Origin: Nibricoccus sp.
Lineage (GTDB): Bacteria > Verrucomicrobiota > Verrucomicrobiia > Opitutales > Opitutaceae
DNA length: 64,000 nucleotides
Assembly (NCBI GenBank): GCA_047602425.1
Contig: JASGHG010000001.1
Span: 2,624,001 to 2,688,000, forward strand
Direction of reading: 5' to 3'
Shown: positions 29,255 to 59,500 of the stretch, one piece after another
Layout of the letters: the number at the start of each line of letters is the position of its first letter
Position numbering within the stretch: the stretch's first letter is position 1
Notes under the pieces: model-generated
The model's input: the letters and a program-made list of their open reading frames with translations, nothing else
The model's database searches: none
Told to the model about the DNA's origin: nothing
Made by a program: the position numbers and the translations under genes

Positions 29255-30157
29255 ATGCAAATCGAAAACTTCAAAATCTTCGCAGATCTTGTCGAGACGA
29301 AGAGCTTCTCGAAGTCGGCAAAAATCAATGGCATCACGCAGTCGGCTGTAAGTCAGCAGGCCCGCGCGATGGAACGTCATTTCAAGACGCTCCTGATCGA
29401 CCGCAGCCAGAAGCAATTTCAGCTCACGCGCGAAGGGCAGCGCGTGTACGACGCTTCCAAGGAGATGCTGCATCAGTATGAAAAACTCCTGAGCGAATTG
29501 CAGGAGATGAAGAAGGTGATCAGTGGCACGATTCGCATTTCGACGATTTACTCGATCGGCCTTCACGAATTGCCGCCTTACATCAAACGCTTCCTCCAGG
29601 ATTTCCCCTCCGTCAACGTGCGGGTTGAGTACCGCCGGTCGAATCTTGTGTACGAGGACATTCTTCACAACTCCGTCGACTTCGGCTTGGTCGCTTTTCC
29701 GGTCAAAGTGCGCCAGATTGAGGCCGTGCCATTCCGCAACGACCGCCTCGTTCTCATCACGCATCCTTCGCATCCGCTCGGACAGAAAAAAGAAGCCGAC
29801 CTCAAGGATCTCACCGGCCAGCGTTTCATCGGCTTCGACCCCGACATCCCAACGCGCAAAGCCGTCGACCAGATTTTCCGCGACCATAAGATCGAAATCG
29901 AACCTGTGATGGAGTTCGACAACATCGAGACCGTCAAACGCGCCGTCGAAATCGATCATGGCGTCGCCATCGTGCCGCACGCAACCGTTCAACAGGAGGA
30001 AAAAGTAGGCTCCCTCGCGGTGATTCCTTTCCACGGCAAGGAATTCTCCCGCCCGCTCGCCATCCTTCACCGGAAGGGGCGCGTGCTGACGCCGGCGATG
30101 AAAAAGTTTATCGACGTGCTGAGCATGGATCTGGCGGCCAAGCCGCAAACAACCTAA
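29255..30157 (+). CDS. LysR-family transcriptional regulator
   Basis: HTH SFSKSAKINGITQSAVSQQ..LIDRS..LTREG; T-N11-A box ATAAgtgatgtTTAT at 29216-29230. Confidence 0.93.
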   Translation: MQIENFKIFADLVETKSFSKSAKINGITQSAVSQQARAMERHFKTLLIDRSQKQFQLTREGQRVYDASKEMLHQYEKLLSELQEMKKVISGTIRISTIYSIGLHELPPYIKRFLQDFPSVNVRVEYRRSNLVYEDILHNSVDFGLVAFPVKVRQIEAVPFRNDRLVLITHPSHPLGQKKEADLKDLTGQRFIGFDPDIPTRKAVDQIFRDHKIEIEPVMEFDNIETVKRAVEIDHGVAIVPHATVQQEEKVGSLAVIPFHGKEFSRPLAILHRKGRVLTPAMKKFIDVLSMDLAAKPQTT

Positions 30158-30247: not shown

Positions 30248-31738
30248 ATGGTTCACAATCTGGTACTTGTCCTTTATAGCATAACGCTGGTCGGTCTGGC
30301 CTGCTTCGCATTGCATCGTGTGAAAATGCTGGGCATGTACCTGTGGGCCGCGCGCAAAAGGCCGCCGCAGGCCACGCTGCCACCGGGGCCGGTTCCGCTG
30401 GTTTGTGTGCAATGCCCGCTTTTTAACGAGCCGCTGGTGGTCGAGGCTTTGCTTGAAAAAGTCACCGCGCTGCGCTGGCCCGCCGGACGTCTGGAAATCC
30501 AGATTCTCGACGACTCAAACGACGAGACGCCGGAGATCATCGAGCGCTGGCTGCAAACGCATGCGGATCGCGCAGCGAACGTGAAACACATTAGGCGAAC
30601 CAATCGCAAGGGCTACAAGGCCGGCGCGCTGGCCTACGGCAACACGCAGACGGCAGCGGAGTTTTTCGCGATCTTCGACGCCGATTTCCGTCCCGAGCCC
30701 GATTTCCTCGAAAAATTGCTGCCGCATTTCTCGAATCCCAAGGTCGGCGTCGTGCAGGCGCGCTGGGAGTTTGTGAACCGTCGTTCCAGTCTGCTGACGC
30801 GCTTTCAAGGCATCTTTCTCGACGCCCATTTCGTCGTCGAACAGGCCGCGCGTTATGGCAACAACCTGTTTTTGAATTTTAACGGTACCGCGGGCGTCTG
30901 GCGTCGTTCGGCCATGGAAGATGCTGGTGGTTGGTCGGCTGACACCGTGACCGAAGATCTCGATTTGAGTTACCGTGCCCAACGCCGTGGTTGGAAATTC
31001 GTTTACCTCGAACATTACACCGTTCCCTCCGAACTTCCGGAAAACCTCACGGCCTTTAAATCGCAGCAACACCGTTGGACGAAGGGTGGCGTGCAAGTCG
31101 CCCGGAAGCAGTTGCGCGATATTCTCCGCAGCGATCTGCCGGGTCCGGTAAAGCGCGAGTCGGTTGCTCATCTCGGCATCGGTTTTGTGCATCCGTTGCT
31201 CGTGACCTTCTCGATTCTTTTTGTGCCGTACCTCTACATCATCGGTGCACATCCGAGCGGCGTCTGGCATTTTCTCAATCCGCTCTCCGTGCTGCTCGCG
31301 GGCGGCACGACCGTGATGTTTTATATCGTCGGCCAATACTTTTTAAACCGCCAATGGCGCGAAGGATTGATCATGTTTGTGAGCAGTCCCTTGTTGCTGG
31401 CGTTTGGTTTGGCCATGAGCGTGACTTGTTGTGTGGCGACAATCGAAGGAATGGTTTCGCTGGGCGGCGAGTTCGTGCGCACCCCGAAAGGCGGACGCGC
31501 GGTCACGGTTGGCGGTTTGGTGGCGCGCTTGCGAAGCCGCACGATGTTCACTGCGATCATGGTGATCGAAGCCGCTATTGGCACGCTGATGCTGGTGGGC
31601 GCGCTTTATTTTCATCGCATCGAAATGACGCAAGTCACCACGGTGCTGGCGGTGAAAGCGGCGGGATTTCTCGGCATGGCGGCGCTGTCCGCTCCCGACC
31701 TTTTGCCGAAGTTTGGTGCCCGTACAGGGGCGGCCTGA
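30248..31738 (+). CDS. GT2 membrane glycosyltransferase (cellulose-synthase-like)
   Basis: DDS, GYKAGAL, FDAD, TED and QQHRW motifs with C-terminal TM helices. Confidence 0.9.
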   Translation: MVHNLVLVLYSITLVGLACFALHRVKMLGMYLWAARKRPPQATLPPGPVPLVCVQCPLFNEPLVVEALLEKVTALRWPAGRLEIQILDDSNDETPEIIERWLQTHADRAANVKHIRRTNRKGYKAGALAYGNTQTAAEFFAIFDADFRPEPDFLEKLLPHFSNPKVGVVQARWEFVNRRSSLLTRFQGIFLDAHFVVEQAARYGNNLFLNFNGTAGVWRRSAMEDAGGWSADTVTEDLDLSYRAQRRGWKFVYLEHYTVPSELPENLTAFKSQQHRWTKGGVQVARKQLRDILRSDLPGPVKRESVAHLGIGFVHPLLVTFSILFVPYLYIIGAHPSGVWHFLNPLSVLLAGGTTVMFYIVGQYFLNRQWREGLIMFVSSPLLLAFGLAMSVTCCVATIEGMVSLGGEFVRTPKGGRAVTVGGLVARLRSRTMFTAIMVIEAAIGTLMLVGALYFHRIEMTQVTTVLAVKAAGFLGMAALSAPDLLPKFGARTGAA

Positions 31739-31824: not shown

Positions 31825-31876
31825 AGAAAACAGAAGGGCCCGCCGATAACCCCTTAACGGCGGGCCCATTATTTTC
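31825..31876. terminator. Probably bidirectional intrinsic terminator
   Basis: GGGCCCGCCG/CGGCGGGCCC stem (31836-31845/31858-31867) with T-rich tails on both strands. Confidence 0.65.
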
Positions 31877-31934
31877 TAGTTGTCCGTTAAACGGACTTCC
31901 ATGTTACCCCAAGTCCCCTGATTGATCAGAGGAT
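31826..31934 (-). ncRNA. Candidate sigma54-dependent small RNA (about 109 nt)
   Basis: Predicted +1 starts a hairpin TCCTCTGA-TCAA-TCAGGGGA; the unit ends at the terminator above. Confidence 0.55.
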
Positions 31935-31944
31935 GGTTTAACTT

Positions 31945-31960
31945 AGCATTGCCCGTGCCA
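31945..31960 (-). promoter_or_regulatory. sigma54 (-24/-12) promoter
   Basis: TGGCACGGGCAATGCT with GG-N10-GC spacing and an exact TGGCACG box. Confidence 0.7.
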
Positions 31961-31974
31961 ACGGAGCAGGGTGG

Positions 31975-33552
31975 TCAAGAATGGCCAAGTTTGGCCAGGG
32001 CGTCGGCGATTTCGCGATCACTGCGGCAACGGGGCATCTTGCTTTGGCCGCCCCATTTTCCGTGGGCGCGCATCCACTGCTCAAAAGTGCCAGATGCAAC
32101 GAGGCGAATGACAGGCGGCTCAAGGCCGAGGCCTTTGCGCTTGGCCTCGTAGTCGTCGTTCAAGCGGATCAATTCGGCGTCCAGTTCGGCGGCGAAGATG
32201 GCGGTTATAGATGGTTCGGGTAGCGTCTTGAGCTCAATCCACCATTCGTGGCTGCCGCGATTTCTTCCCGTGGCGGCGTCGACGAAGAGCGGAGCAACAT
32301 GAAAATTGACAGGCGTCCAGCCATGGCGCTGGCAAACGATGGCGAGAGCATCAGTGAGCTCTTTTTCGATCACATGTTCGCCAAAGGCGCTGAGTTGCAG
32401 CTTTGTGCGGCCCGCGTAGACGAGCCTCGGAATGTCGGTGGAGACAAACCGTACGACATCGCCAATCACATAGCGCATCAGCCCGGCGGGTGTGGTGAGA
32501 ACGAGAGCGTAATCGATGCCGGCCTTCACGCCTTCGAGCGGTACTGCCTTGGGCCCGAGTTCGCCGAGTCGCGTTTCGTCGAATTCGTTGAGCGGCAGGA
32601 ATTCGAAAAAAAGGCCGACATCGGTCATGAGCCGAAGTCCGAGAGCGGCGTCGGCATCTTGCGTGGCAATAAAGCCTTCGGATGCGGGATACACTTCATG
32701 GAAATTGACGCCGGCGCCGAGGGTGGCGCGCAGTTCTTCGGCAAAAGGCGCGATGGGTACGCCGCCGTGGATGAGGCATTCGAGATTTGGCCAGACGGCA
32801 CGGAGATCGGCGGACAATGCCGAACCTTTTGCGGCGCGCTCTCGTACGGCGGCGGCAAGGATGAGCACCCAGCTTGGGATTCCGGCGACAAGTCGAAGGT
32901 CGCGGTTGTGCGTGCGTTCGGCGATGGCTTTGATTTTTTCGGGCCAATTGCCGATCTGTGCGACGTCCGCACCCGGTTCATAGAGGTAATGATTCACCCA
33001 ACCGGGCATGTGCGTGGCGGTGATTCCGCTGAGGTCGCCCGCCCAGGCCTCGAAGGGCTTCGACTCTTCGATGTATGCGAGGGCGGTGGAGCCGCCGAGG
33101 AACAATTGTTTACCGCTAAAGACCGAAGTGCTGCCGGTTCGTGCCGCGTAGTAAAGAAGCGAATCGAGTCCGGCCTGTCGGAAGTGTGCGAGCATTGCAT
33201 CGGTGATCGGCAGATATTTGGTGCGACCGGCGGTCGTGCCGGACGAAACGGCGTAGTATCGACAGCGACCGGGCCAAAGCACGTCAGCCTCGCCACGTTT
33301 CATGCGCTCGATGGGAGCGATGAAATTTTCATAAGTGCGCAGAGGAATTTTTGCCTGAAACTCCGTGTACGTAATGCCCGGATGAAGACCGTTTTCGCGT
33401 CCGAAACTACAGCGAGCCATCGCACTCGTGAGCCGCGCGAAAGTTTTGTGCTGGGCGGGCAGGATACGCTGCGGGTCCCGCAGGCGGCGGGTCGTTCGTA
33501 CGGTTAAGAAACGGGCGCCTATCGTAAGCAGGCTTCGAGGCAGGACCGGCAT
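31975..33552 (-). CDS. GH3 acyl-acid-amido synthetase family protein (auxin-responsive GH3, not glycoside hydrolase)
   Basis: SSGTTAGRTKYLP, Y.ASEGF, GL.RYVIGDVV, GGQSKMPR. Confidence 0.88.
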   Translation of the reverse strand: MPVLPRSLLTIGARFLTVRTTRRLRDPQRILPAQHKTFARLTSAMARCSFGRENGLHPGITYTEFQAKIPLRTYENFIAPIERMKRGEADVLWPGRCRYYAVSSGTTAGRTKYLPITDAMLAHFRQAGLDSLLYYAARTGSTSVFSGKQLFLGGSTALAYIEESKPFEAWAGDLSGITATHMPGWVNHYLYEPGADVAQIGNWPEKIKAIAERTHNRDLRLVAGIPSWVLILAAAVRERAAKGSALSADLRAVWPNLECLIHGGVPIAPFAEELRATLGAGVNFHEVYPASEGFIATQDADAALGLRLMTDVGLFFEFLPLNEFDETRLGELGPKAVPLEGVKAGIDYALVLTTPAGLMRYVIGDVVRFVSTDIPRLVYAGRTKLQLSAFGEHVIEKELTDALAIVCQRHGWTPVNFHVAPLFVDAATGRNRGSHEWWIELKTLPEPSITAIFAAELDAELIRLNDDYEAKRKGLGLEPPVIRLVASGTFEQWMRAHGKWGGQSKMPRCRSDREIADALAKLGHS

Positions 33553-40947: not shown

Positions 40948-40963
40948 TGGCATCCGCTTTGCA
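40948..40963 (+). promoter_or_regulatory. sigma54 promoter of flhB-flhA-flhF
   Basis: TGGCATCCGCTTTGCA (GG-N10-GC). Confidence 0.75.
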
Positions 40964-40983
40964 TCTGAGCATGCCACCCTTCC

Positions 40984-42120
40984 ATGTCCGATACCGACCA
41001 AGACTCAAAAACAGAGCAGGCGACCGACAAACATTTGTCGGAAGCGCGGTCAAAGGGTCAGTTCGCGAAGTCGCCGGAAATTTCGGTGGTGGCAATGCTG
41101 ACCGCGACGTTGGGCGCCTTGGCGTTAACGATGGGGACGGCGGCGAGCGAACTGGGTGGTCTGGCCGTAAGCATTTTTTCCAATTTGGGCTCGGCGCAAG
41201 TGACGACCGGAACGCTGGCTTCGCAACTAGGCGATATCATGCTGGTGATTGGGAAAGTTCTCGGTCCGATCATGGCGGCGGCGGTATTGGCCGCATTGAT
41301 TTCGGGTGGCATCCAAAGCGGTTTTCATTTCACGCCGGAGGTGCTGGGTTTTCACATTGAAAATTTGAATCCGGCGTCGGGCTTTCAAAAGCATTTTTCC
41401 AAAGCTGTATTCGTGCGCGCGGGCGTGGATTTGCTCAAATTGGTATGTATCGGAATGGTTCTATGGGTGGCGGCACGGAGCCTGTTTCGCGATCCGATTT
41501 TCACTGCGCCGGTCGAAGTGGTTTACGTCGGGCAATTCCTCGGCCGTGCGATGAAATCATTTATGTCTCGGCTCATTCTCATGCTGAGCGTGATCGCCGC
41601 GATCAGCTACTTCTACGAGTTCTACAAGACGAAAAAGGACATGATGATGACGCGTGAGGAAGTGAAGGAGGAGCACAAGCAGTCTGAAGGCGACGGCATG
41701 GTGAAAAGCGCGATGCGTCGCATGGCGCGTCGACTCGTGCAGAAGCAGATGCTGGCCAAGGTTCCAACCGCCGATGTCATCATCACCAATCCGACCCACT
41801 ACGCGGTGGCGTTGAAATACGAACGCGGCCTCGACAAGGCGCCAATCGTATTGGCGAAAGGGGAAAATCAATTCGCCCGCCGCATCAAGGCGCTCGCTGC
41901 GGAGCACGGTGTGCCAATGGTCGAGAACAAGCCTGTCGCCCGCATGCTTTATGCGCTGGGTCGCGTCGACGAAACAATTCCCTCCGAGCTATATCAGGCC
42001 GTGGCGGAGATCCTGGCCTTCGTTTATCGGACGCATCGTTACTATTTCTACCGCCTGAAATCCCGCCGGGCCGAAGCCGCCGCCGCGACACCCACGGTTG
42101 CCGAAACCGCCGGCAACTGA
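40984..42120 (+). CDS. flhB: Flagellar export protein FlhB
   Basis: KTEQAT, EVKEEHKQSEGD and the NPTH autocleavage motif. Confidence 0.96.
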   Translation: MSDTDQDSKTEQATDKHLSEARSKGQFAKSPEISVVAMLTATLGALALTMGTAASELGGLAVSIFSNLGSAQVTTGTLASQLGDIMLVIGKVLGPIMAAAVLAALISGGIQSGFHFTPEVLGFHIENLNPASGFQKHFSKAVFVRAGVDLLKLVCIGMVLWVAARSLFRDPIFTAPVEVVYVGQFLGRAMKSFMSRLILMLSVIAAISYFYEFYKTKKDMMMTREEVKEEHKQSEGDGMVKSAMRRMARRLVQKQMLAKVPTADVIITNPTHYAVALKYERGLDKAPIVLAKGENQFARRIKALAAEHGVPMVENKPVARMLYALGRVDETIPSELYQAVAEILAFVYRTHRYYFYRLKSRRAEAAAATPTVAETAGN

Positions 42121-58774: not shown

Positions 58775-59236
58775 ATGAAAGTCAGTCCCGACACCACTCC
58801 GACCGAACCGGTGCCCGCCGGCAATGGGCAAACCCTGCGCCTTCCCGAAGGCCTCGTTGGTTTTCCCGAACACAAGAGCTTCGAGCTTCTCTACGTGCCT
58901 GACCAGCTCCCATTTATTTGGCTGCGCCTCCACGGCCCCGATGTTCTCCATTTTGTCGTCATCGAACCCGCCGGCATTATTCCTGACTACGAACTCGAAT
59001 TGTTCGACGAGGATGCTGCAATGGTCGGCATCACCGATCCAACCGACGCGATGGTCCTTAACATCGTCACCGTAAAGCCCGGCACTCAGGCCACCGCCAC
59101 CGTCAATCTCGCCGGCCCCATCATCGTCAATCGCCGCACGGGCATTGCCAAACAATGCGTGCTGGCCAATTACTCTCGCTACAGCGCGCATCACCCGCTG
59201 GTCGACCAAAACGCCAACGCCGGCCAAACGAAGTAA
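58775..59236 (+). CDS. fliW: Flagellar assembly factor FliW
   Basis: PEGLVGF, PFIWL, FVVIEP..PDY, TVNLAGPIIVN..AKQ. Confidence 0.9.
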   Translation: MKVSPDTTPTEPVPAGNGQTLRLPEGLVGFPEHKSFELLYVPDQLPFIWLRLHGPDVLHFVVIEPAGIIPDYELELFDEDAAMVGITDPTDAMVLNIVTVKPGTQATATVNLAGPIIVNRRTGIAKQCVLANYSRYSAHHPLVDQNANAGQTK

Positions 59237-59242
59237 ACCGCC

Positions 59243-59500
59243 ATGCTCGTACTCACCCGCAAAGTAAACGAATCGATCGTCATCGGCGGCAATATCGAGA
59301 TCAAAATCACCCGCATCGACGGTGACCTCGTCAAGATCGGCATCGATGCGCCGCGCGATATCCCTGTTTTCCGCAAGGAAGTCCTCGCCGAAATCGCGGC
59401 CAACAATCAGGCCGCAACGCTCAACCCCGGCGCCGCCCTGCCCAAGCTTCCCCGGCCTCCCAAGCCCGCTGCGCCGCCGCCTCCAAAACCAGCCCTTTGA
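59243..59500 (+). CDS. csrA: Carbon storage regulator CsrA
   Basis: [28 protein letters not shown]. Confidence 0.95.

Follow-up and report, generated by a model that had tools for sequence, protein, structure and literature searches.

A predicted sigma54-dependent small RNA of Nibricoccus sp. and its sibling family in the Opitutales

The interval between two convergent genes of Nibricoccus sp. raises the question of whether it holds an independent sigma54-driven small RNA (sRNA) gene, and of which mRNAs such an RNA might meet. Members of the Opitutales break down polysaccharides and are widespread in soils, waters and guts, and the answer bears on how sRNAs find targets in bacteria without Hfq or Shine-Dalgarno (SD)-led initiation. 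We analysed a 64,000-nt stretch of DNA (the window; G000:C1:2624001-2688000, where G000 is the source genome), and positions below are those of the window unless a contig is given. Comparative evidence argues for a genuine and conserved sigma54 sRNA gene at the locus, through which a family of siblings spanning the order came to light, and the fixed G-rich loop of the RNA probably pairs with C-rich sites before the starts of secreted sugar-degrading and nutrient-uptake genes.

The sRNA locus and its conservation

The RNA element is on the minus strand, with a GT2 gene (30248-31738, +) on one side of it and a GH3-family gene (31975-33552, -) on the other. The original prediction had described a sigma54 promoter with a +1 at 31934, a hairpin directly after it and a terminator that closes a unit of about 109 nt. 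All of these are present in the sequence, the sigma54-type site at 31960-31945 (-), the hairpin at 31933-31914 and the terminator at 31867-31836 followed by a U-tract, together forming a 109-nt unit; the predicted +1 follows from the usual spacing of sigma54 promoters. The features are:

31975..33552, minus strand: GH3-family upstream neighbour gene, OlsH-like, below the NCBIfam cut-off
31945..31960, minus strand: sigma54 (-24/-12) promoter, with strict TGGCAY-N6-TGC in 122 of 123 parsed homologous loci
31826..31934, minus strand: predicted 109-nt sRNA, sigma54 member of the sibling family, its 5' end placed by promoter spacing
31914..31933, minus strand: 5' hairpin; the equivalent helix of the short siblings is 98.6% paired, with two compensatory pairs
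31903..31912, minus strand: single-stranded G-rich site 1 (UUGGGGUAAC), with GGGGU at 31910-31906
31898..31903, minus strand: CAUGGA, the anti-start segment of the original prediction, subtype-restricted
31882..31896, minus strand: middle hairpin, variable in sequence and specific to sigma54 members
31868..31877, minus strand: A-rich linker; AGAAA is invariant in the short siblings, and sigma54 members are A-rich here
31836..31867, minus strand: terminator hairpin whose G-rich loop is conserved (site 2; loop 31857-31846, GGGGU 31853-31849)
31826..31835, minus strand: U-rich tract after the terminator
29255..30157, plus strand: LysR-family gene, the usual downstream convergent neighbour; here the GT2 gene intervenes

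The 109-nt unit folds at -48.9 kcal/mol (z=-5.2; 0 of 200 shuffles equally good) in the order 5' hairpin, open G-rich segment, middle hairpin, A-rich linker and terminator. Site 1 is unpaired in the modelled ensemble of the G000 RNA, and 94 of 96 members have a middle stem of at least 5 bp, whereas shuffled sequences would give 32. The RNA shares its strand with the GH3-family gene and lies 15 nt beyond the GH3 stop, so its terminator probably also ends the GH3 mRNA.

DNA searches match the intergenic part in many genera, and a model restricted to the transcribed part (R1) matches, at E<=0.001, 142 of the 151 genomes of the family (77 at E<=5.3e-13). A pattern for the terminator alone gives 94 matches in 185,579 species genomes, and the titles among the matches listed (80) are all Opitutaceae, Opitutae, Opitutales or unspecified Verrucomicrobia; a strict sigma54 site stands upstream in 93 of these 94 loci, with a chance expectation of 0.0015 per scanned interval. 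The wider promoter count comes from 124 loci examined, 123 of them parsed and 122 with the strict motif. A sigma54-like site also precedes 18 of the 20 weaker R1 matches fetched, which have the same loop and often a wholly different 5' part. In 110 distinct sigma54 members, a set biased to one subtype by the terminator pattern, the mean unpaired probability of the terminator loop is 0.83 in the structure model, consistent with a conserved, seed-type unpaired element. The loop is unchanged while stems covary, and 3 of 10 terminator-stem pairs show compensatory changes. Promoter and RNA are conserved far beyond chance, in support of the proposed independent sRNA gene, and a conserved -24/-12 element stands at fixed spacing before a non-coding unit, the mark of sigma54-dependent sRNAs. 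No shared upstream activator site was found among 88 non-coding upstream stretches, and there are 12 bEBP-like matches.

The neighbourhood is less constant. GH3 adjoins the RNA in 70 of the 110 loci, but 28 loci with 1 kb or more of upstream sequence lack it, and the GH3 neighbour is not required for the RNA. A LysR gene lies downstream in 59 of the 110; the LysR gene itself (29255-30157, +) is highly conserved, with GCTAATC kept before its start in many genomes.

The sibling family

The sRNA is one of three siblings in G000, and this family, like the conserved G-rich terminator loop, had been missed by the original prediction. The other two are short:

G000:C1:1887656-1887748, plus strand: short sibling (L289), upstream of a DAHP synthase gene
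G000:C1:1091316-1091410, minus strand: short sibling (L290), upstream of a PhoH-like gene

The promoter on the DAHP synthase side is presumably sigma70-like and that on the PhoH side ECF-like. GGGGUAA, AGAAA and the loop UAGGGGUA are invariant across 23 short siblings; pairing in their stems is kept at 99.3%, and 10 of 18 pairs show compensatory changes (8 of 12 in the terminator stem). What the family conserves at its core is GGGGU(A): the terminator loop carries it, and the single-stranded 5' segment usually has a second copy. Site 1, the 5' copy, is kept in 18 of the 29 top sigma54 members, and its GGGGUAA form, invariant in the short siblings, is kept in the order-level homologues; these copies keep both motifs, apart from one with a changed site 1.

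A model built from the short siblings without any member of the sigma54 RNA type (R2) matches the sigma54 locus at E=3.2e-11. It finds the family in 151 of 151 Opitutaceae genomes (1-7 copies each) and in 14 of 14 other Opitutales genomes, and in 0 of 129 genomes from other Verrucomicrobiae orders; presence in all 151 suggests a regulator of global reach. The copies are homologous, several to a genome, with a common core under differing promoters, as expected of a sibling sRNA family. In the family f34 a sigma54 copy and a sigma70-like copy often stand in tandem, which makes the division of inputs look old.

Some further copies are of separate note. Another sibling class (L182, L184-L187, L190) is absent from G000, and in one of its members (L187) a sigma54 site replaces the usual promoter of the class; many genomes have a sibling no more than ~10 kb away from the sigma54 RNA. 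A weak R2 match (E=0.003) at G000:C1:1312746-1312826 (-) (L292) has a hairpin, UUUUGGGGUAA and then a terminator-like hairpin without the G-loop, and is possibly a degenerate fourth sibling. Four identical copies of at least ~110 nt, near G000:C1 4746096, 4545362, 3861892 and 327979 (-), are probably the end of a mobile element. Two patterns gave no matches in viral contigs.

At the gathering threshold Rfam 15 has no match in the window, nor in sets of 5 and of 8 sibling or homologue loci (best sub-threshold score 21.8 bits, threshold 90), so the Rfam check suggested at the outset returned no family. No description of an Opitutales regulatory sRNA was found in the literature searched, which took in few subscription papers, and the main texts of PMC11109978 and PMC8632094 contain no Opitut-, Coraliomargarita, Verrucomicrob- or Akkermansia word (their supplements may list the motif). 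The sibling family is apparently undescribed.

Candidate targets and the role of the G-rich loop

Our G000 gene set comprises 3873 genes from our own crude predictor, with starts and signal peptides assigned by crude scripts. Its starts are C-rich and G-poor, with C at 64% at -1 and no SD peak; some Verrucomicrobia are reported to be SD-scarce (PMC10783764). Hfq and KhpA/B were not found in G000, with controls positive in both searches, and csrA-fliW and RRM genes are present. We discarded the idea that the loop mimics an SD and binds an altered 16S tail, since G000 has a canonical 16S end. GGGGT before starts is rare (5 occurrences at -12..-6), which argues against mimicry.

The complement of the invariant motif marks a particular class of genes. 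TACCCC, the exact complement, lies at -14..-1 of 34 G000 genes, 24 of which are signal-peptide-like versus 977 of 3873 overall (p=3e-8), and it ranks first of 647 hexamers for such genes, with 17 of 27 remaining after paralogues are collapsed. ACCCC ranks first of 968 pentamers at -30..-1 for signal-peptide-like genes and survives a composition control (p=0.0015). Against a pairing model, TACCCC is not over-represented overall relative to a positional base model (34 versus 30.9). We scanned the proteins of 22 of the 34 genes, mostly chosen among the signal-peptide-like, and found three PL1 and two PL9 lyases, a pectin methylesterase, GH11 and GH43 enzymes, together with TonB, ExbD, MCP, hybrid kinase, MacB-like permease and TPR proteins; eight have no family. 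Small paralogous secreted pectate lyases and pectin methylesterases also lie in clusters (G000:C1:1710345-1717802, 1191660-1193595 and 3211364-3215217).

These sites recur in relatives, with the caveat that homologous leaders are not independent of each other. Among close pectinase homologues (lyases and esterase, >=45% identity, other genomes) ACCCC is present in 19 of 21 leaders versus 9.7 expected from dinucleotide shuffles, twice in 7 of them, and permuted A/C words are not enriched; in distant pectinase homologues it is present in only 2 of 13. TonB homologues have it in 13 of 22 usable leaders (29 loci; 6.4 expected), and comparison leaders rarely do (flhB 1/29, PP2C 1/29, GH3 0/23, LysR 1/47). 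PheA was dropped as a conserved target (5 of 57 metagenome leaders). TonB-family leaders (L455-L484) show a conserved AACCC(C), often followed by an SD-like or ANGGA word that is unusual for an SD-scarce family.

Complementary sites are conserved for pectinase and TonB leaders; order-wide, the pattern counts give no clear signal. In 30+30 pattern loci from five other genomes, 5 of 11 versus 2 of 7 are signal-peptide-like, too small a sample to be informative. The class-wide ratio of ACCCC to TCCCC before ATGAAA is only a little higher in Opitutales (374/511) than in the others (~1745/3202) and does not separate genomes with the RNA from those without (the family f36, without the RNA, 59/68). 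Single-domain pectinases are patchy, with any match in 26 of 201 genomes, and the RNA family is universal. Modelled pairing energies, including the opening of both RNAs, are ~-6 to -13 kcal/mol over 6-10 bp; the duplexes are short (6-8 bp), which counts against pairing, and the flanks of the ACCCC sites offer little extra complementarity to the RNA. The A/C-rich leaders could be enhancers or protein sites, and their complementarity to the RNA coincidental.

On the promoter, structure, family, invariant motif and conserved complementary leader sites obtained by comparison we build a mechanism in which transcription, actual pairing, repression, and an activator with its signal are postulated. 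We give somewhat better than even chances to Hfq-independent base-pairing that represses exported carbohydrate-uptake proteins, with the siblings feeding in different sigma-factor signals. A bEBP-activated sigma54 promoter would make the ~109-nt RNA, whose loop and open segment would each expose GGGGU(A); this would nucleate, without Hfq, on (U/A)ACCCC within ~30 nt upstream of start codons, chiefly of secreted polysaccharide-degrading enzymes and TonB-type uptake components. Because initiation here is on C-rich, SD-poor leaders that must stay unstructured, the short GC-rich duplex would most likely hinder or block it. A leader with two sites could accommodate both motifs, or two RNA molecules, and siblings under other sigma factors would give the same output in other conditions. 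The five-letter target prediction is directly testable.

More tentatively, and with the balance leaning against it, we suggest an order-wide, Hfq-independent post-transcriptional code that mirrors anti-SD regulation: in SD-scarce genomes, C-rich (U/A)ACCCC would mark mRNAs of exported polysaccharide-degrading and uptake proteins, the universal G-loop siblings, each under its own sigma factor, would read it, and this locus would be its sigma54 input.

CsrB/Rsm and CrcZ RNAs titrate RNA-binding proteins, and we consider it unlikely, though worth weighing, that the siblings are protein decoys of this kind, whose GGGGU(A) repeats and A-rich linker titrate an RNA-binding protein (e.g. an RRM protein) and sum inputs. 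A repeated short motif with one copy in a loop, the multi-copy and universal occurrence, the invariant AGAAA linker and the RRM genes all suit a decoy, and no long conserved complement of the loop was found; a decoy should however resemble mRNA sites, whereas GGGGU is scarce in leaders and its complement marks a coherent gene class, and neither KhpA/B nor Hfq turned up as a candidate protein.

It is improbable that the G-rich loop instead sponges a C-rich sRNA, as CrfA does with SisA-D. Sponging of C/U-rich sRNAs by a purine-rich loop has precedent (PMC12559287) and the promoter would be condition-specific, but no partner sRNA was seen in a non-systematic search, and an 18-nt stretch in a PP2C leader, the longest complement to the loop that the genome contains, is not conserved in 29 relatives; PP2C was set aside as a target for the same reason.

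The original prediction was of an anti-start-codon sRNA that uses CAUGGA to repress flhB and an HDOD gene within a flagellar cascade. Its general notion of pairing with C-rich start regions remains probable, but the seeds proposed for it, ACATGGAAG and GGACTTGGGGT, are each found in a single one of the 110 distinct sigma54 members. The 9-nt complementarity to flhB and the 10-of-11 match to the HDOD gene are present, and both genes fall in the top 1% of the 3873 G000 starts for the middle segment (ranks 38 and 25; 1677 and 437 for the loop); a subtype retains CAUGGA (17 of the 29 top model matches), even in some members that have lost site 1, and ACCCC is found in 10 of 64 G000 flagellar-region genes (p=0.0025). 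CATGGA is however in only 18 of the 110 members of the larger set, and the short siblings lack it. A single flhB locus of 30 has the flhB start 9-mer and one relative of 4 the HDOD ACCCC site, and with flgC (2/10), fliE (0/9) and fliF (1/8) these genes were rejected as conserved targets. It had been allowed that such short matches may be chance, and indeed CCATG stands at 995 of 3873 starts and the flhB 9-mer at 6; the matches are not beyond chance, since they reflect the start context of the genome, and CCATG is not coupled with a downstream CCCC. The flagellar link itself fails, as the RNA is independent of flhB: genomes with strong R1 matches number 51 with and 26 without flhB, and the rest 48 and 26 (p=0.87), the RNA-bearing genomes without flhB including the single-contig G097, G126 and G171. 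We regard this model as quite improbable. As a separate observation, conserved sigma54-type sites stand only ~20-25 nt before the start codons of flhB (stretch 40948-40986, +) and flgB (L486), so near that the leaders of the two genes would be ~10 nt or less.

A CsrA sponge, also raised at the outset, is very improbable. The three GGA motifs are present, fliW-csrA lies within the window, and some members read ACAUGGAUGU, which resembles the CsrA consensus; but no more than one GGA occurs in 87 of 110 members, two of the three here are paired, the short siblings have no exposed GGA, and CAUGGA occurs in 4 genomes without flhB (flhB was scored there, not csrA). The fliW-csrA genes are at 58775-59500 (+), between flgL and the flagellin gene, and there is no GGA within 70 nt upstream of the flagellin start.

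Finally, a mere terminator or 3' UTR of the GH3 gene, for which strand, the 15-nt distance and frequent adjacency speak, is most unlikely given the near-invariant promoter, the 28 loci without GH3 and a loop constant under stem covariation, as is a micro-peptide gene, the predicted 8-codon ORF being present here but not conserved (1 of 110 members). Base-pairing with ACCCC leaders remains our preferred reading.

Comparison with known sRNAs

By the tests made, the sRNA belongs to none of the systems with which we compared it. Pseudomonas CrcZ is a known sRNA that we set beside the sigma54 sRNAs, and neither it nor Vibrio Qrr1-5 has a sequence or Rfam match to our RNA; the multiple GGA motifs in loops of a CsrB/RsmZ-type sponge were likewise not found. 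Like our RNA, Qrr1-5 are sigma54-dependent, of similar size and multi-copy (PMC12559287, PMC10162802), but they are co-regulated and need Hfq, whereas only some siblings here have sigma54 sites, and neither the Qrr sequence family nor Hfq dependence was found. SisA-D (alphaR8) and CrfA of Caulobacter share dispersed siblings under unrelated promoters and the order weak hairpin, single-stranded core and terminator, but the alphaR8 core is UUUCCUCCCU, which our RNA lacks, and acts with Hfq (PMC12559287); the CrfA model matched the opposite strand only (16 bits, cut-off 38).

RepG of Helicobacter pylori likewise has its seed in the terminator loop and base-pairs to a homopolymer run within a leader, with the polarity reversed (a C/U loop and a G-repeat target), no sibling family and a phase-variable repeat as the target (PMC8295292). 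GcvB resembles our proposal in having many targets and in pairing with A/C-rich elements upstream of uptake-protein starts (PMC3879156), but is single-copy and Hfq-dependent and silences ACA enhancers beside the SD, whereas the site here is ACCCC in SD-scarce leaders.

For FopS/GibS of Bacteroides, the FopS R1 seed and structure were not detected, a result drawn from the lacking Rfam match; its paper reports the structure as deposited in Rfam (PMC11697453), and the model may not be in the Rfam copy used. FopS has a 5' single-stranded seed and a terminator, whereas here the G-rich motif is in the terminator loop and repeated (PMC11697453), and unlike FopS one member here is sigma54-driven and the phylum is different. 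The likeness is nonetheless broad, and takes in multi-copy paralogous sRNAs of an Hfq-less lineage with a shared seed, members under different promoters, the repression of polysaccharide-utilisation genes and the presence of RRM proteins (PMC11697453).
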